This document shows positions 1,143 to 47,362 of a DNA stretch of 64,000 nucleotides, piece after piece (the first letter of the stretch is position 1; each line of letters begins with the position of its first letter). Source of the stretch: a virus (lineage: Duplodnaviria; Caudoviricetes); the IMG/VR virus record IMGVR_UViG_3300044656_000027, positions 47,290-111,289 of that record; one strand, 5' to 3'. The position numbers and the translations under genes are program-made. The notes beneath the pieces were generated by a model, which made no database searches, was not told the origin of the DNA, and saw only the letters and a program-made list of their open reading frames with translations.

Positions 1143-1403
1143 TTACCTTCCATTATACCTAAATGGCTTTCCGCTGAAAGTAACTCCCTGACCAATAGAG
1201 CCAGTGACGACCTGAGGCGCGTTATTCTGTTGGTGCATTCTCTGGTATTTCTGTTCCAATTCCCAGAGCACTCTGTTAACCCAATGTAGGCGTTCTCTTC
1301 TATTAAGTCTTTTAATATCGGAGAGTGGCCAATTGTAATTATCTACTAATTGTTCATAATCTTTATAGAGTAATTCTAAATTAGATACCGCGAAATAGGG
1401 CAC
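1143..1403 (-). CDS. Tail assembly chaperone, downstream (possibly frameshifted) segment
   Basis: Overlaps the end of the upstream chaperone in the +1 frame; lies between chaperone and tape measure. Confidence 0.6.
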   Translation of the reverse strand: MPYFAVSNLELLYKDYEQLVDNYNWPLSDIKRLNRRERLHWVNRVLWELEQKYQRMHQQNNAPQVVTGSIGQGVTFSGKPFRYNGR

Positions 1404-2253
1404 CCACGCTTAGAGGAATGGTTAGCTCCCCTTCGCAACTTGGGCAAGAACCTGAGACCTCATCATAGCGAGGACCAGGATTGATGTTGTAAATGAAATC
1501 CTGTACAGCTCTGCGGTCAGCTAGACCTAGCTTCTTCACATCATTCAACCCGTTGCATGGAGTCTCATTGCCTGTAGCGTCTACGAAAGACAGAATGCAA
1601 TGGGCAAGAGTTACCGTATTCATTTCGGGAATGGTCAGTGGCTTCTTGAAAAGCTCCGTCTGTAGAGCACCCGTAGGCAGAGTAATACGAGCCTTGCGAC
1701 CCTTACGCAGGTCAACAACATATTCTCTCTGCTCTGGATCTTCCAGCTTACGTACTGGGATATCAGAGAGATTAAGCTGGAGATCATTAGCCTCACCACA
1801 GTGAGGACACTCAAGACCATTAAGCTCAAAGTCTTCTCCGAAGGTAGCACGACGAATACCAAGGATCAGCATGTCTAGGTCTCCCTGTAGCATGCCGTCC
1901 AGAATGGCTGGAGTGGCCTTTACATCGCCGATCGATACCACGCCGCACTGGAGTAGCGTGCTGATGAACTTAGCAGGGTTAGGAGCCTGTCTGGCCTTTG
2001 CCAACAACTCTTCATGCTCTCCAGTAAGTTCCTGTACCTCAGCGTCCTGAAGAACTTCTCCGTCATCTGCTACAAGTCCACCAGGAAGCTGGACATAACA
2101 TTCTGGATATGGCTCGATGACAGGGGCAGATTGCGGAGTAAGAGAACTCAGTACCTTCTTAGTCAATGCATTAAGGTCTGATGTTTCTGCCGTGTGAATC
2201 TGCCCCTGATCATCATCAAAGGACATACTGTATTGTGGCTTCTCGTATTCCAT
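1381..2253 (-). CDS. Tail assembly chaperone / baseplate-hub-assembly-like protein
   Basis: Directly after tail tube; two CPxC motifs (CPHCG, CPSCEG). Confidence 0.65.
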   Translation of the reverse strand: MEYEKPQYSMSFDDDQGQIHTAETSDLNALTKKVLSSLTPQSAPVIEPYPECYVQLPGGLVADDGEVLQDAEVQELTGEHEELLAKARQAPNPAKFISTLLQCGVVSIGDVKATPAILDGMLQGDLDMLILGIRRATFGEDFELNGLECPHCGEANDLQLNLSDIPVRKLEDPEQREYVVDLRKGRKARITLPTGALQTELFKKPLTIPEMNTVTLAHCILSFVDATGNETPCNGLNDVKKLGLADRRAVQDFIYNINPGPRYDEVSGSCPSCEGELTIPLSVGALFRGI

Positions 2254-4810: not shown

Positions 4811-5431
4811 CTAGTTTTGAGGCGGCAGGACAGTAATGTTGTTAACTGTCTTCTGGACCTGGTAGTAGGTATCGATCTCTACTGGCAATAGTTCAGTAGA
4901 TACACGAACAGTGTATACATTGTGGAACAATCTCTTGCCATCGGCATCATGAGTGTTCTGTCTTTCTGGACCTGCCATCAGATCCATTCTGCGCACCGTG
5001 CCATCTTCGGGTATAGCTAGATAGCCATGACGTACGCTGAGGAAATCCGGACCGGACAATATTGCTGTAAGCAAAGTAGAGTGCTTATTGTTCTGGGATA
5101 GGACTTCTATTTGATAATCAATATTATACGGGATTGGCGTGAAAGCCCAGTACGGGCTATTAGTCACATCTAGATTACCATCATTGATCCATTGTGTGAA
5201 ATTCTCCGGAGTATATGGTAATTGGTACCAACCTGACCCAGCTCTCTCTGCATCGAATGAGAGCCCAACATTACAGATAACGATGGATGGGTAGGTCAGG
5301 TTGACTAGTTCAACATCGGGGTCCAACCAAATAGCTTGGACTGGTCTACCCGTGTCTGGCGCGTTCACGTCCGGTACTACTAGGTTGGAGAACTTGTCCT
5401 TCATTGCTCTGTCTTCATTGAAGATAAACAT
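4811..5431 (-). CDS. Probable tail terminator/neck protein
   Basis: Immediately upstream of sheath; YPSI and PIPYNIDYQIEV motifs. Confidence 0.55.
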   Translation of the reverse strand: MFIFNEDRAMKDKFSNLVVPDVNAPDTGRPVQAIWLDPDVELVNLTYPSIVICNVGLSFDAERAGSGWYQLPYTPENFTQWINDGNLDVTNSPYWAFTPIPYNIDYQIEVLSQNNKHSTLLTAILSGPDFLSVRHGYLAIPEDGTVRRMDLMAGPERQNTHDADGKRLFHNVYTVRVSTELLPVEIDTYYQVQKTVNNITVLPPQN

Positions 5432-25880: not shown

Positions 25881-25937
25881 GTTTAGATTCTAGTGTAAAA
25901 GAAAACCCCTGTCAAGAGACAGAGGCTTTCAGTGGAG

Positions 25938-26019
25938 TGGGTAGAGAGGGACTTGAACCCCCAGATCCGAAGAACGGGTTTTACAGACCCGCGCGCTACC
26001 AATTACGCTTTACCTACCC
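25938..26019 (-). tRNA. tRNA-Tyr(GTA)
   Basis: Cloverleaf by eye; cgggt-CTGTAAA-acccg; variable arm. Confidence 0.9.
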
Positions 26020-27392: not shown

Positions 27393-27396
27393 AAAG

Positions 27397-27473
27397 AGCG
27401 CAGCAGGAGAATCGAACTCCAAACCAATCGCTTTGCAGGCGATCCCCAGACCATCCGAGTTAGGACACTGCGC
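27397..27473 (-). tRNA. tRNA-Cys(GCA), enlarged D region
   Basis: atcgc-CTGCAAA-gcgat; U discriminator. Confidence 0.8.
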
Positions 27474-27478
27474 ATAAG

Positions 27479-27558
27479 TGGAGCTGCGGGGATTCGAACC
27501 CCGGTGCTGATAACTTCCGACATGCGGTTTTAATCACCAGACGAAACCAACCAGCCCC
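27479..27558 (-). ncRNA. Minimal tmRNA-like RNA (tRNA-like domain only)
   Basis: GGGGCTG/CAGCTCC-A acceptor with G3.U70; GGTTTCG loop without D stem; P2-like helix; T arm; no tag ORF. Confidence 0.75.
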
Positions 27559-28398: not shown

Positions 28399-28953
28399 TT
28401 AGTCCCACCACATAGCCTTAGCATATAGTGGATTCTCTTCTATGTCAACGTCCCACCAGTTATCAACCTCAGCCCAACGCCAGATCGTTCCCCAGTCGTC
28501 GTATCCATTAGGTACTTCGATAGCAGAATTTGGATCAGTGTCAGCATGGTGTCCCATGTAGTTAATAGCCTGCTTGAGTTGCTGCTTGACGTTGTGTCTG
28601 CGAGCCTGACTTACAGCCTTCTTAGCGCCGTGTCGTGGCCAACCGTAGCCTATATCAGTTGCGTAGTATTTGCAACCATCACGCCAACGATTGTGCGTAT
28701 GTGTCATTGGCTCATCAATATTACAAGGAACTTCCTCAGTCCAACGATCCCAGACGTGAACGGATTCTTGACGCTCTGGAATCTTGTAGTAACGCATTTC
28801 ATCCCAATCCCAAACATACTTGGAAGGGATGGTAGTTACATCCGTACGAACATACTCTCTTCGATGACGCAGATGATTATGGACAGCCTCACGGCGTTCC
28901 TTAGAGTCATTAGAGCGAACCCAGTAAGGACGATCCTTGCGAGTGCGGGACAT
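28399..28953 (-). CDS. Hypothetical basic/Trp-rich protein
   Basis: GGGAG RBS; MSRTRKDRPYWVR N-terminus. Confidence 0.6.
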   Translation of the reverse strand: MSRTRKDRPYWVRSNDSKERREAVHNHLRHRREYVRTDVTTIPSKYVWDWDEMRYYKIPERQESVHVWDRWTEEVPCNIDEPMTHTHNRWRDGCKYYATDIGYGWPRHGAKKAVSQARRHNVKQQLKQAINYMGHHADTDPNSAIEVPNGYDDWGTIWRWAEVDNWWDVDIEENPLYAKAMWWD

Positions 28954-29064
28954 ATTTACTCCCTTGTTAGTGCTAAAGCAAATGCCAGTATTTAGAGGAA
29001 CTGGCTGGCCTCCCGTTCATTGAGACTTTCTAGGGTGTGTTTCAGAACGGCTTAGATATCCCTG

Positions 29065-29140
29065 CACGGATGACAGGAGTTGAACCTGCATGTGTCCTTT
29101 AACCTTTCTACGCGTTCGTAGCGCGAGGGTATACATCCGC
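29065..29140 (-). ncRNA. Non-canonical tRNA-like RNA with ACG anticodon and no D arm in the usual place
   Basis: GCGGATG/CATCCGT acceptor; CGCG-CTACGAA-CGCG; 21-nt post-anticodon segment; T arm. Confidence 0.65.
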
Positions 29141-29551
29141 ATTAAGTTGCCACCAATTAAACTGTCTGGCAGTTCTGTATCTGTGACATTTGACACAACG
29201 AATATCGCACTTAGCGATCTCAGTTTGTAAAACTTCTAAACTAAGCTTTCGCTTAATACCATCCGCTATATTAAAACTTTTGGTTTCTGGATCTCGATGA
29301 TCAAAGTCCAGAAGGACTATATCAGACTCGCCACAATCTATACAGGGATTCTGATCATAGTAATTTACTAAGTAAGTTCTAACCTTTACTAGGTACTTCT
29401 CATCATTACGCCGTGCCTTAGCCAAGTAGCTTTGCTTATTAGCTTGATAATGCTCACGAGTATACTTACGATGACAAGGCTTACACATTGCACTCTTAGT
29501 TGCGAACTCTTCTTTGGCCAACTCTTGGTTGCACCTACTACATGTTTTCAT
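29108..29551 (-). CDS. HNH endonuclease
   Basis: KTCSRC...CKPC; PCIDCGE...LDFDHRDP...CDIRCVKCHR. Confidence 0.85.
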   Translation of the reverse strand: MKTCSRCNQELAKEEFATKSAMCKPCHRKYTREHYQANKQSYLAKARRNDEKYLVKVRTYLVNYYDQNPCIDCGESDIVLLDFDHRDPETKSFNIADGIKRKLSLEVLQTEIAKCDIRCVKCHRYRTARQFNWWQLNADVYPRATNA

Positions 29552-29571
29552 GCTACTAATTATAGCATAGG

Positions 29572-29609
29572 TTCGTAGGCAAGTGCTCTATCCGTTGAGC
29601 TATAGCACC
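29572..29609 (-). pseudogene. 5' half of tRNA-Arg(ACG), truncated at the anticodon loop
   Basis: GGTGCTA-TA-GCTC-AACGGATA-GAGC-A-CTTGC-CTACGAA followed directly by the HNH promoter; no matching 3' half seen. Confidence 0.75.
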
Positions 29610-29617
29610 ATACTTTG

Positions 29618-30121
29618 TTACTTCTTTAAACTTAGCAGATAATCTCTTATAGCACCAGGACTTGTCAAGTATGCTGGCTTGTTAGACAGCTTGGAACCCG
29701 CCAAATCGTAATCCTCAGCACAGAGTTGAGAGCAGATCAAGTGCTTGCTGTTAAGAACTCTAGCAGAGATCCAAGGAAGAGGCAAGTGCAGTCTCTTCGT
29801 GAAAATCGCAAAGTAATCCAGGAAACTGTATGGTGTGCCAATCTGATTGGTTGCTAGAGTAACGATAGTCACTCTTTGCTGAGCTGTCAAATCAATCAGA
29901 CCAGAGGACCACAGGATCTCTCGTCCATCGTACTTCGACAAGTTAGTTCTGATAGCACCACCAGGTTGAGCTTCTACGATCTCACCATTACCAATGTAAA
30001 TGAAGGCATGCTCATAGTTGGAGAAGCCATCTCCGTTAAGCCACTGGCCTAAGCGAATCAGCTTGCCCACAGTACCGTTGATACTTACTAAGCCTACATC
30101 ACCTGGTAATAGTTCCGCCAC
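29618..30121 (-). CDS. Permuted papain-like NlpC/P60 (YiiX/YaeF-like) protein
   Basis: PGD...YEHAFIYIG...VEA...GTPY...ICSQL (His before Cys); start trimmed. Confidence 0.8.
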   Translation of the reverse strand: MAELLPGDVGLVSINGTVGKLIRLGQWLNGDGFSNYEHAFIYIGNGEIVEAQPGGAIRTNLSKYDGREILWSSGLIDLTAQQRVTIVTLATNQIGTPYSFLDYFAIFTKRLHLPLPWISARVLNSKHLICSQLCAEDYDLAGSKLSNKPAYLTSPGAIRDYLLSLKK

Positions 30122-33625: not shown

Positions 33626-33629
33626 AATG

Positions 33630-33769
33630 TGGATAGTTGGATTCGATGATTACCAACAAGGCATTTCCTACGTCATACAGTAAATACCTACCATCCCTTT
33701 GGGTGCTACCCAAGACCGCTAAGTCAGGATGTGCGTTCGACCCATAGGCGAGTCTTTTCCGCCATATCC
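33630..33769 (-). ncRNA. Expanded tRNA-like multi-helix RNA
   Basis: GGATA/TATCC-A closing stem; D-like and T-like arms; internal helices. Confidence 0.45.
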
Positions 33770-33795
33770 GGTCAGCATGATCAGTGCCGACTTTG

Positions 33796-35810: not shown

Positions 35811-35848
35811 ATAAGTGCCCTGCTATTGCTAGCTGTTTATGGGCTAAG

Positions 35849-35921
35849 TACCGTATAGGAGACTCGAACTCCTTCGTTCACTTTGGAAGAGTGACATGCT
35901 GCCATTAAACATCAATACGGC
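35849..35921 (-). tRNA. tRNA-Gly(TCC)
   Basis: tcact-CTTCCAA-agtga. Confidence 0.9.
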
Positions 35922-36431: not shown

Positions 36432-36515
36432 TGGTAGCGGAGGCGGGATTTGAACCTCTTTGTGCGATCTCTAGCTTATGAGGCTAGCGAGATGACCTAG
36501 CTTCTCTACTCCGCG
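36432..36515 (-). tRNA. Initiator-like tRNA-Met(CAT) with T-stem insertion
   Basis: C1:A72 mismatch; encoded CCA; ctagc-CTCATAA-gctag. Confidence 0.75.
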
Positions 36516-47259: not shown

Positions 47260-47362
47260 AGCCTGTCTCTTCTGGGGCACTGAGAGGCTGTGAGAGAGCC
47301 CTTCAGTACCTCAGTGGACACAGGGTCCAGACACCACAATTGATCTTGTTAGAGGTGCCATT

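Follow-up and report, generated by a model that had tools for sequence, protein, structure and literature searches.

To our knowledge, the cloverleaf is taken as universal for transfer RNA (tRNA) outside mitochondria. A paper of 2024 described all known bacterial tRNAs as cloverleaves. The present analysis concerns a gene at positions 29,065 to 29,140 (minus strand) of a 64,000-nt stretch of phage DNA (IMG/VR virus record IMGVR_UViG_3300044656_000027, positions 47,290 to 111,289; the whole stretch is called the window), in which the 5′ strand of the D stem and the D loop were found after the anticodon arm. Judged from sequence comparison, this rewired gene probably encodes a working elongator tRNA-Arg(ACG) of the phage, with a core wired differently from the cloverleaf. 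Full-text literature searches and a 2020 review of non-canonical tRNAs gave no description of the rewired architecture.

Canonical tRNA-Arg(ACG) (RF00005; ICG in E. coli) contains the same 7-bp acceptor, 5-bp T arm with a UUCRANY loop, CUACGAA sequence, G18 G19 A20 A21 nucleotides and discriminator, and its L shape, enzymes and codons are presumably the same as well. It contains a four-way junction, whereas the rewired core contains a three-way junction and a changed order of segments.

The D-armless mitochondrial tRNAs (animal mitochondrial tRNA-Ser(AGY) and nematode mitochondrial tRNAs) likewise lack a hairpin between the acceptor stem and the anticodon stem, and standard finders miss them as well. 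The D stem and the G18 G19 elbow of these tRNAs are lost and the molecules are floppy (PMC4013460, PMC7609411). In the rewired tRNA, by contrast, the D stem and D loop were found to be intact but moved, the elbow pairs covary, and the carriers are phages of bacteria and not organelles. A D-armless tRNA of the mitochondrial type was rejected for this gene, as both elements, D stem and G18 G19 loop, are in place and covary.

The circularly permuted and split tRNA genes also contain an order of segments unlike that of the mature cloverleaf; in Cyanidioschyzon merolae (PMC3728597) and in Archaea (PMC3218864) they are cut and ligated at bulge-helix-bulge motifs to give a normal cloverleaf. The rewired gene differs in that no splice motif was present and no simple processing could bring the segments back into cloverleaf order; the mature RNA presumably keeps the rewired chain. 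A permuted or split gene was rejected because the acceptor strands occur in normal order and pair within 76 nt. The allo-tRNAs with 8/4 or 9/3 acceptor/T helices, which came to light in mined metagenomes and occur in part in phages, are likewise natural tRNAs of non-standard form (PMC5389517); their helix lengths are changed and their cloverleaf connectivity is kept, unlike that of the rewired tRNA. A tRNA of non-canonical fold whose use in E. coli was evolved in the laboratory is engineered and imported (PMC11551756), and it raises the same question, namely whether bacterial translation can use an adaptor that is not a cloverleaf.

Layout, covariation and detection of the rewired gene

The gene was found to contain the following segments (positions of the window; equivalents in tRNA numbering).

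29065..29140, minus strand: whole rewired tRNA-Arg(ACG) gene, 76 nt including discriminator G73, without encoded CCA (next bases CAG)
29134..29140, minus strand: 5′ strand of the acceptor stem, pairing with 29066-29072; all 7 pairs changed on both sides within the family, with pairing in 98.5% of cells
29132..29133, minus strand: U8 and A9 equivalents, invariant in 127 sequences, though the search patterns fixed both bases
29128..29131, minus strand: UACC, equivalent of the D-stem 3′ strand 22-25, directly after A9; its last three bases pair with 29102-29104
29110..29127, minus strand: C26 equivalent and anticodon arm (U.U, 4-bp stem, loop CUACGAA); 4 pairs covary, 99.6% paired
29105..29109, minus strand: linker AGAAA (44 and 45 equivalents plus AAA) from the anticodon stem to the relocated D-stem strand; GAAA fixed by the search patterns
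29101..29104, minus strand: GGUU, equivalent of 10-13 (5′ strand of the D stem), moved to the 3′ side of the anticodon arm; supported by covariation
29093..29100, minus strand: D-loop equivalent AAAGGACA with A14, A15, G18 G19 (29097-29096), A20 (29095) and A21; 18-19 covaries with T-loop 55-56
29090..29092, minus strand: CAU connector, its last base the U48 equivalent; CAU in 120 of 127 sequences, unconstrained by any search pattern
29073..29089, minus strand: T arm with 5-bp stem and loop UUCAACU; 98% paired, two-sided changes in 4 of 5 pairs
29065..29072, minus strand: acceptor 3′ strand (29066-29072) and discriminator G73 (29065); pairing in the family alignment

The chain was thus found to run in the order 1-7, U8 A9, 22-25, 26, 27-43, 44, G45, AAA, 10-13, 14-21, CA, U48, 49-65, 66-72, 73. 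The 7-bp acceptor stem, which opens with a G-U pair in the window copy, the 5-bp T stem, the 7-nt T loop and the 7-nt anticodon loop with U33 and R37 were kept as in canonical tRNA, along with the elbow bases GG (18-19) and UC (55-56). The anticodon ACG occupies 29117-29119 (minus strand), and its loop CUACGAA is identical to that of E. coli tRNA-Arg(ICG). The U8 and A9 equivalents would have the same tertiary role as in canonical tRNA. The 8-nt segment TATACCCT was found between the acceptor and anticodon stems; only 6 nt separate A9 from the anticodon stem, leaving no D hairpin in its canonical place between 9 and 26. The 21-nt segment 3′ of the anticodon arm was found to contain the 5′ D-stem strand, followed by the D loop with G18 G19 A20 A21 and by U48. 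The block 10-21 (5′ D-stem strand and D loop) thus appears to be in effect transposed to the position of the variable loop, and since it follows the anticodon arm there is neither a D hairpin nor an ordinary variable loop. The linker was AGAA, AGCA or AGUA in divergent members of the family.

An alignment of 127 distinct sequences (A1), with four helices and 19 pairs, carries this layout. In A1, 98.8% of the helix cells were paired, changes on both sides were present in 18 of the 19 pairs, and the rewired D stem was paired in every one of the 127 sequences. The covariation score was 0.887, against 0.222 for shuffled and 0.12-0.15 for slid controls, and RNAalifold, with the alignment as its sole input, predicted the same 19 pairs. 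The scan was also repeated with a relaxed pattern in which two triplets, one following TAT and the other preceding TAA, were free to vary. The free triplets were found to be complementary in all 95 hits, with 11 different triplet pairs (ACC/GGT in 65, GCC/GGC in 10, AAC/GTT in 7 and CTC/GAG in 4, plus others). The elbow likewise covaried: positions 18-19 and 55-56 were GG/UC in 113, GA/UU in 9 and AG/GC in 4 sequences, which accounts for 126 of 127 with one exception, and the variant forms span at least six acceptor stems, two anticodons and several D-stem variants.

The D stem of the window copy contained the pairs G10-C25, G11-C24, U12-A23 and U13.U22. As the strand 10-13 comes after the anticodon arm and the strand 22-25 before it, the D stem encloses the anticodon arm, and the two form one continuous long hairpin, which by analogy corresponds to the stack of D stem and anticodon stem in the normal L. 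The relocated D loop would join this hairpin to the T stem and would still offer G18 G19 to U55 C56. The L shape is very likely kept, because the elbow contact of ordinary tRNA covaries. The nucleotides of the canonical tertiary core were all present, namely U8, A14, A15 with U48, G18, G19, A21, A9 with U12-A23, and G45 with G10-C25. A pairing of U48 with A15 and a contact of the A of the CAU connector with the U13.U22 pair are proposed.

A sequence-only reading of the window had listed a 7-bp acceptor, an 8-nt linker, an ACG arm, 21 nt and a normal T arm in 76 nt, and every one of these elements was present on the minus strand. The back-pairing of GG to the linker that it proposed was found as ACC (29128-29130) paired with GGU (29102-29104), with covariation among homologs, and the rearranged topology, with the anticodon arm ahead of a D-like segment, was confirmed by covariation in 127 distinct homologs. 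It had named the absence of homologs with compensatory changes, together with the absence of a processed RNA, as what would speak against it; on the first point, all four helices were found to covary across the 127 homologs. A covariance model built from phage homologs, which it had put forward as a check, was found to separate the family cleanly from ordinary tRNAs. This model (R1), specific to the family and trained on the 127 sequences including the window copy, gave the window copy 86.9 bits (E = 1.5e-24) and the 32 ordinary tRNAs of the window at most 27.7 bits. Core members of the family ranged from 77 to 97 bits and divergent members from 36 to 68 bits, with ordinary tRNAs at 28 bits at most.

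Standard tRNA search tools were found to miss this layout. The Rfam tRNA model RF00005, with a gathering threshold of 29 bits, gave the window copy 27.1 bits (E = 0.0023 within 701 nt), below that threshold, and its alignment deleted the D arm and placed a 17-nt insertion in the variable region. The D-armless tRNA with a long variable arm implied by this alignment was rejected, since the "variable" segment contains no internal stem, carries the D-loop motif and pairs through GGU with the upstream ACC. ARAGORN in default mode called 32 other tRNA genes in the window and not this one, and found none of the 127 family members; its mitochondrial mode called 8 of the 127, four of these as Arg-acg.

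Distribution, anticodon identity and exclusion of ordinary tRNAs

An unannotated homolog was found in the Streptomyces phages Mildred21, Braelyn and Persimmon, in which the acceptor, anticodon and T stems differ from those of the window yet stay paired, and the segments TATACCCT and GAAAGGTTAA were unchanged. A type with the anticodon GAU was found in dozens of BE-cluster phages, where it follows a nucleotidyltransferase gene. It carries no annotation there, with the exception of EGole, whose record labels it tRNA-Leu. Other carriers included the cultured Microbacterium phages A3Wally and Zooman and an uncultured 462-kb phage, followed by more divergent forms in Stenotrophomonas, Agrobacterium and Pseudomonas phages (e.g. 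PAK_P2) and in Salmonella phage Felix O1. A pattern of two conserved blocks, open to any anticodon, matched at least 119 IMG/VR contigs, and in 185,579 cellular genomes it matched 7 contigs, all of them from metagenome-assembled genomes; the family is almost purely viral. The carrier hosts are diverse, as the loci span 23-57% G+C, and by sequence the family is conserved in hundreds of phages, with hosts that range from Streptomyces and Microbacterium to Pseudomonas and Salmonella.

The GenBank records matched in the searches were found almost never to annotate members of the family. The Felix O1 copy (NC_005282, 25951-26029; 44.7 bits) is unannotated, and the genome paper of that phage had expected an Arg(AGA) tRNA and not found it. 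Some members carry another label. The gene SEA_MILDRED21_169 (L177 21368-21443; Mildred21 91367-91442), labelled tRNA-Phe(gaa), was identified as a rewired tRNA-Arg(UCG) with 87.8 bits, and EGole gene 108 (L005 1195-1271; EGole 75265-75341), labelled tRNA-Leu, as a rewired tRNA-Ile(GAU). Yaboi gene 148 (86692-86754), labelled tRNA-Val, is a further candidate, since it overlaps a region that matches a divergent member by blastn. Four rewired genes were present in Mildred21, namely Ile-GAU, Arg-ACG, Arg-UCG and a weaker match (41 bits) annotated as tRNA-OTHER, and the sole ordinary Arg tRNA of this phage is CCU. In locus L050 a decayed rewired tRNA-Ile(GAU) (5159-5229, plus strand; 38.8 bits), with the T arm and acceptor lost, was found between two intact rewired genes. 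Locus L130 contained a near-identical pair of rewired tRNA-Arg(ACG) genes 560 bp apart (841-917 and 1400-1476, minus strand), in which the D stem is CAC/GUG and the T-stem region is longer by one base.

The anticodons were found to be of Arg (ACG, UCG, UCU, CCU) or Ile type (GAU, UAU, CAU) only, in searches with the strict pattern, with R1 and with a descriptor scan of 1.59 Mb. No other amino-acid identity was found by the any-anticodon pattern, R1 or the same descriptor scan, beyond two mis-parses. A common ancestor of the Arg and Ile types is plausible, because one base change in the anticodon turns UCU into UAU. Directly 3′ of G18 G19, all 77 Arg members containing GG have A, and 36 of the 37 Ile members have U. 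In the D loops listed for the 13 Arg members that lack GG, which are GA or AG forms, A was likewise present at position 20. The discriminator was A73 in all 37 Ile members. The nucleotides A20 and C35 are the main determinants of ArgRS in E. coli. In 64 of 128 sequences the discriminator is followed immediately by CCA, where chance would give about 2.

The rewired genes lie within tRNA arrays, as ordinary tRNAs were present at 155 of 162 family loci, with about 10 per locus. For the anticodon ACG, the non-redundant loci contained both forms in 1 case, the rewired form only in 76, the canonical form only in 8 and neither in 33 (Fisher p = 8.6e-4), and the same exclusion was found for GAU (p = 0.019) and UCU (p = 0.049). 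Members of the family thus tend to exclude an ordinary tRNA of the same anticodon. In the long open reading frames of the 111,289-bp genome to which the window belongs, CGU (35%), CGC (19%) and CGA (11%) made up 65% of the Arg codons; these are the codons read by an ACG tRNA with inosine 34.

The half tRNA, the HNH gene and the neighbouring genes

The phage genome to which the window belongs is 111,289 bp long and has direct terminal repeats; it is a relative of the tRNA-rich Streptomyces phages (family Stanwilliamsviridae). The 32 tRNA genes called by ARAGORN in the window lie on the minus strand at 25.9-36.9 kb, and the ordinary tRNAs of the genome cover all twenty amino acids, including Arg-UCU. 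Two further features were found upstream of the rewired gene.

29108..29551, minus strand: gene for a free-standing HNH homing endonuclease of 147 aa (phrog_2255 HNH endonuclease, E = 9e-33)
29572..29609, minus strand: 5′ half of a canonical tRNA-Arg(ACG), with acceptor strand, D arm, anticodon 5′ strand and loop (Rfam 14.9 bits, 5′ part only)

A Pfam search of the neighbouring reading frames gave no match for the HNH protein. The half tRNA stops right after CUACGAA; over 30 nt it shares about 90% identity with tRNA-Arg genes annotated in the Streptomyces phages BillNye, Circinus and Faust. The sequence-only reading had taken the adjoining canonical Arg(ACG) gene to be broken and the rewired gene to be the only intact ACG carrier; only the 5′ half of the former was found to remain, and the full genome of 111,289 bp gave no further ACG call by ARAGORN. 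A single split tRNA made of the half tRNA and the rewired gene was rejected, as the acceptor strand of the half does not match the 3′ strand of the rewired gene. A tRNA interrupted by a group I intron with an HNH reading frame was also rejected, since there was no complementary 3′ exon, no ribozyme core and no Rfam intron hit, and the interval is almost all reading frame.

The same three-part layout, half tRNA-Arg(ACG), HNH gene and rewired tRNA-Arg(ACG), was found in contig L098 (2064-2640, minus strand). Its HNH protein is 54% identical to that of the window, and its half tRNA breaks at the same point and contains a different acceptor strand. An overlap of the HNH gene with the rewired tRNA was also present in L098 (41 nt) and in L120 (22 nt). 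The sequences suggest that a cassette with its own replacement tRNA has homed more than once into ordinary tRNA-Arg(ACG) genes.

The neighbours were surveyed as 946 open reading frames within 3 kb of the rewired tRNAs at 117 non-redundant loci, followed by clustering. Homing endonucleases were the commonest neighbours: the six largest clusters comprised four of homing endonucleases, one of unknown function and one of the nucleotidyltransferase of the BE phages; no synthetase or modification enzyme recurred among the 946 frames. No CCA-adding enzyme (PF01743) was found in the genome of the window phage. In the BE-cluster relatives, a nucleotidyltransferase gene adjoins the rewired tRNA-Ile. The tRNA region of that cluster (L177; Mildred21 70-105 kb) was found to encode, besides the tRNA nucleotidyltransferase whose gene immediately precedes the rewired tRNA-Ile, an RNA ligase, a polynucleotide kinase and an RNA-binding protein of the Ro-like kind, a gene set that amounts to a kit for tRNA repair and quality control. 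A promoter and terminator scan of 28900-29700 of the window gave nothing above background.

Other features were found in the tRNA array. A segment of 83 nt (27476-27558, minus strand) gave an Rfam match to transfer-messenger RNA (tmRNA) that spans the model from its first to its last position (58.2 bits, E = 6e-21), and no tmRNA was called there by ARAGORN. The segment resembles the tRNA-like domain without the usual tag-coding and pseudoknot body; the tmRNA of Mildred21 is 267 nt. A manA RNA motif just below threshold (52.6 against 55.2 bits, E = 2.5e-11) was present at 33626-33791 (minus strand) between tRNA-Thr genes. Four tRNAs called by ARAGORN were low or partial by Rfam, namely Cys (19.9 bits, partial), Gly-UCC (32.8 bits), an 84-nt Met-CAU (35.8 bits) and Tyr (39.9 bits), at 27396-27473, 35848-35921, 36432-36515 and 25937-26019 (minus strand), respectively. 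The array may hold further non-standard tRNAs.

Probable function of the rewired tRNAs and their meaning

As a working tRNA-Arg(ACG), the RNA would be transcribed together with the tRNA array and trimmed by RNase P and 3′ nucleases, followed by the addition of CCA by a host enzyme. Host TadA, which requires the anticodon arm alone, would deaminate A34, host ArgRS would charge the RNA through A20, C35 and G36, and the charged RNA would serve the phage at CGU, CGC and CGA codons. The rewired tRNA would most likely have come in one cassette with the HNH gene, in place of the 3′ half of an ordinary tRNA-Arg(ACG). On the simplest view, that of intron-less homing, the endonuclease would cut ordinary tRNA-Arg(ACG) genes near the anticodon loop, and the repair after the cut would copy in the HNH gene with the rewired allele, by which function would be restored.

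Several points weigh against this reading. The anticodon stem of the main subfamily is just 4 bp and is closed by U.U, and the new connections 9 to 22, 45 to 10 and 21 to 48 would have to be sterically feasible, which the canonical tRNA structure suggests they are. Folded on its own, the window copy was unremarkable (z = -1.59), and its structure of lowest energy does not fully coincide with that from the comparison of homologs. The last 11 codons and the stop of the HNH gene lie inside the tRNA gene, the frame covering its first 33 nt; because of this overlap, 5′ processing of the rewired tRNA would cut the HNH mRNA. The exclusion statistics come from partial loci (14 kb or less) with ARAGORN calls and from sequences that are not phylogenetically independent. 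Mildred21 contains a rewired and a canonical tRNA-Ile(GAU) together, so that replacement of the canonical tRNA is not absolute.

The alternative that survives best is a tRNA mimic or decoy, which would fold as described but act off the ribosome, soaking up a host factor directed at tRNA (an anticodon nuclease, ArgRS or a modification enzyme) or a phage factor. Conservation of the fold and of the anticodon loop would suit such a role, and the tRNA-repair genes of Mildred21 (RNA ligase, polynucleotide kinase, tRNA nucleotidyltransferase and Ro-like protein) suggest that host attack directed at tRNA matters. A decoy is nevertheless unlikely, as it would be expected beside an ordinary tRNA of the same anticodon and not in its place, a nuclease decoy would not need the conserved A20 or U20, A73 and encoded CCA, and the commonest Arg codons would be left without a phage tRNA though all 20 amino acids are otherwise covered. 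The identity nucleotides for Arg and Ile, the CCA in half of the family, the exclusion and the codon use together favour, on sequence grounds, a working tRNA over a decoy, the two functions that the sequence-only reading had put forward.

A tRNA-shaped signal for processing or regulation, for instance an RNase P or RNase Z site that trims or silences the overlapping HNH mRNA and decodes nothing, would account for the end of the HNH frame within the rewired gene and for the repeated overlap in L098 and L120. Most members of the family, however, contain no overlapping reading frame, no HNH gene is adjacent in Mildred21 and Braelyn, and such punctuation needs neither a conserved anticodon loop nor position 20 nor a discriminator matched to the anticodon; a signal of this kind is very unlikely. 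Decay after a rearrangement beside the HNH insertion would fit the adjoining truncated tRNA and mobile endonuclease and the rejection of the gene by ARAGORN and by the Rfam threshold, but a pseudogene is scarcely credible when 127 distinct homologs in phages of 23-57% G+C keep every helix by compensatory changes and the truly decayed copy of L050, at 38.8 bits, has lost its stems.

Within the reading of the family as working tRNAs, the rewiring may be either adaptive or a neutral isomer spread by mobile endonucleases. In the adaptive case, the rewired tRNAs would decode as they are, and phage adaptors for Arg and Ile would escape a recogniser of the ordinary core of D arm and variable loop, with homing cassettes overwriting the ordinary genes. 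The recogniser escaped could be a host defence that cleaves tRNA or a phage factor that disables host tRNAs. This combined proposal is speculative, with a rather low chance of being right.

The inventories of phage tRNAs are systematically incomplete or wrong, as the genes are mostly unannotated and some are mislabelled, and analyses of codon usage against tRNA content inherit these gaps, for example the missing Arg(AGA) tRNA of Felix O1. The family is a natural test of which connections of the core are needed by RNase P, the CCA-adding enzyme, TadA, ArgRS, IleRS, EF-Tu and the ribosome, and it offers new scaffolds for the engineering of orthogonal tRNAs. If charged and decoding as they stand, the rewired tRNAs would be the first natural non-cloverleaf tRNAs in bacterial translation, and the family would be a natural counter-example to the universality of the cloverleaf, with the same L-shaped core apparently formed from a differently connected chain.
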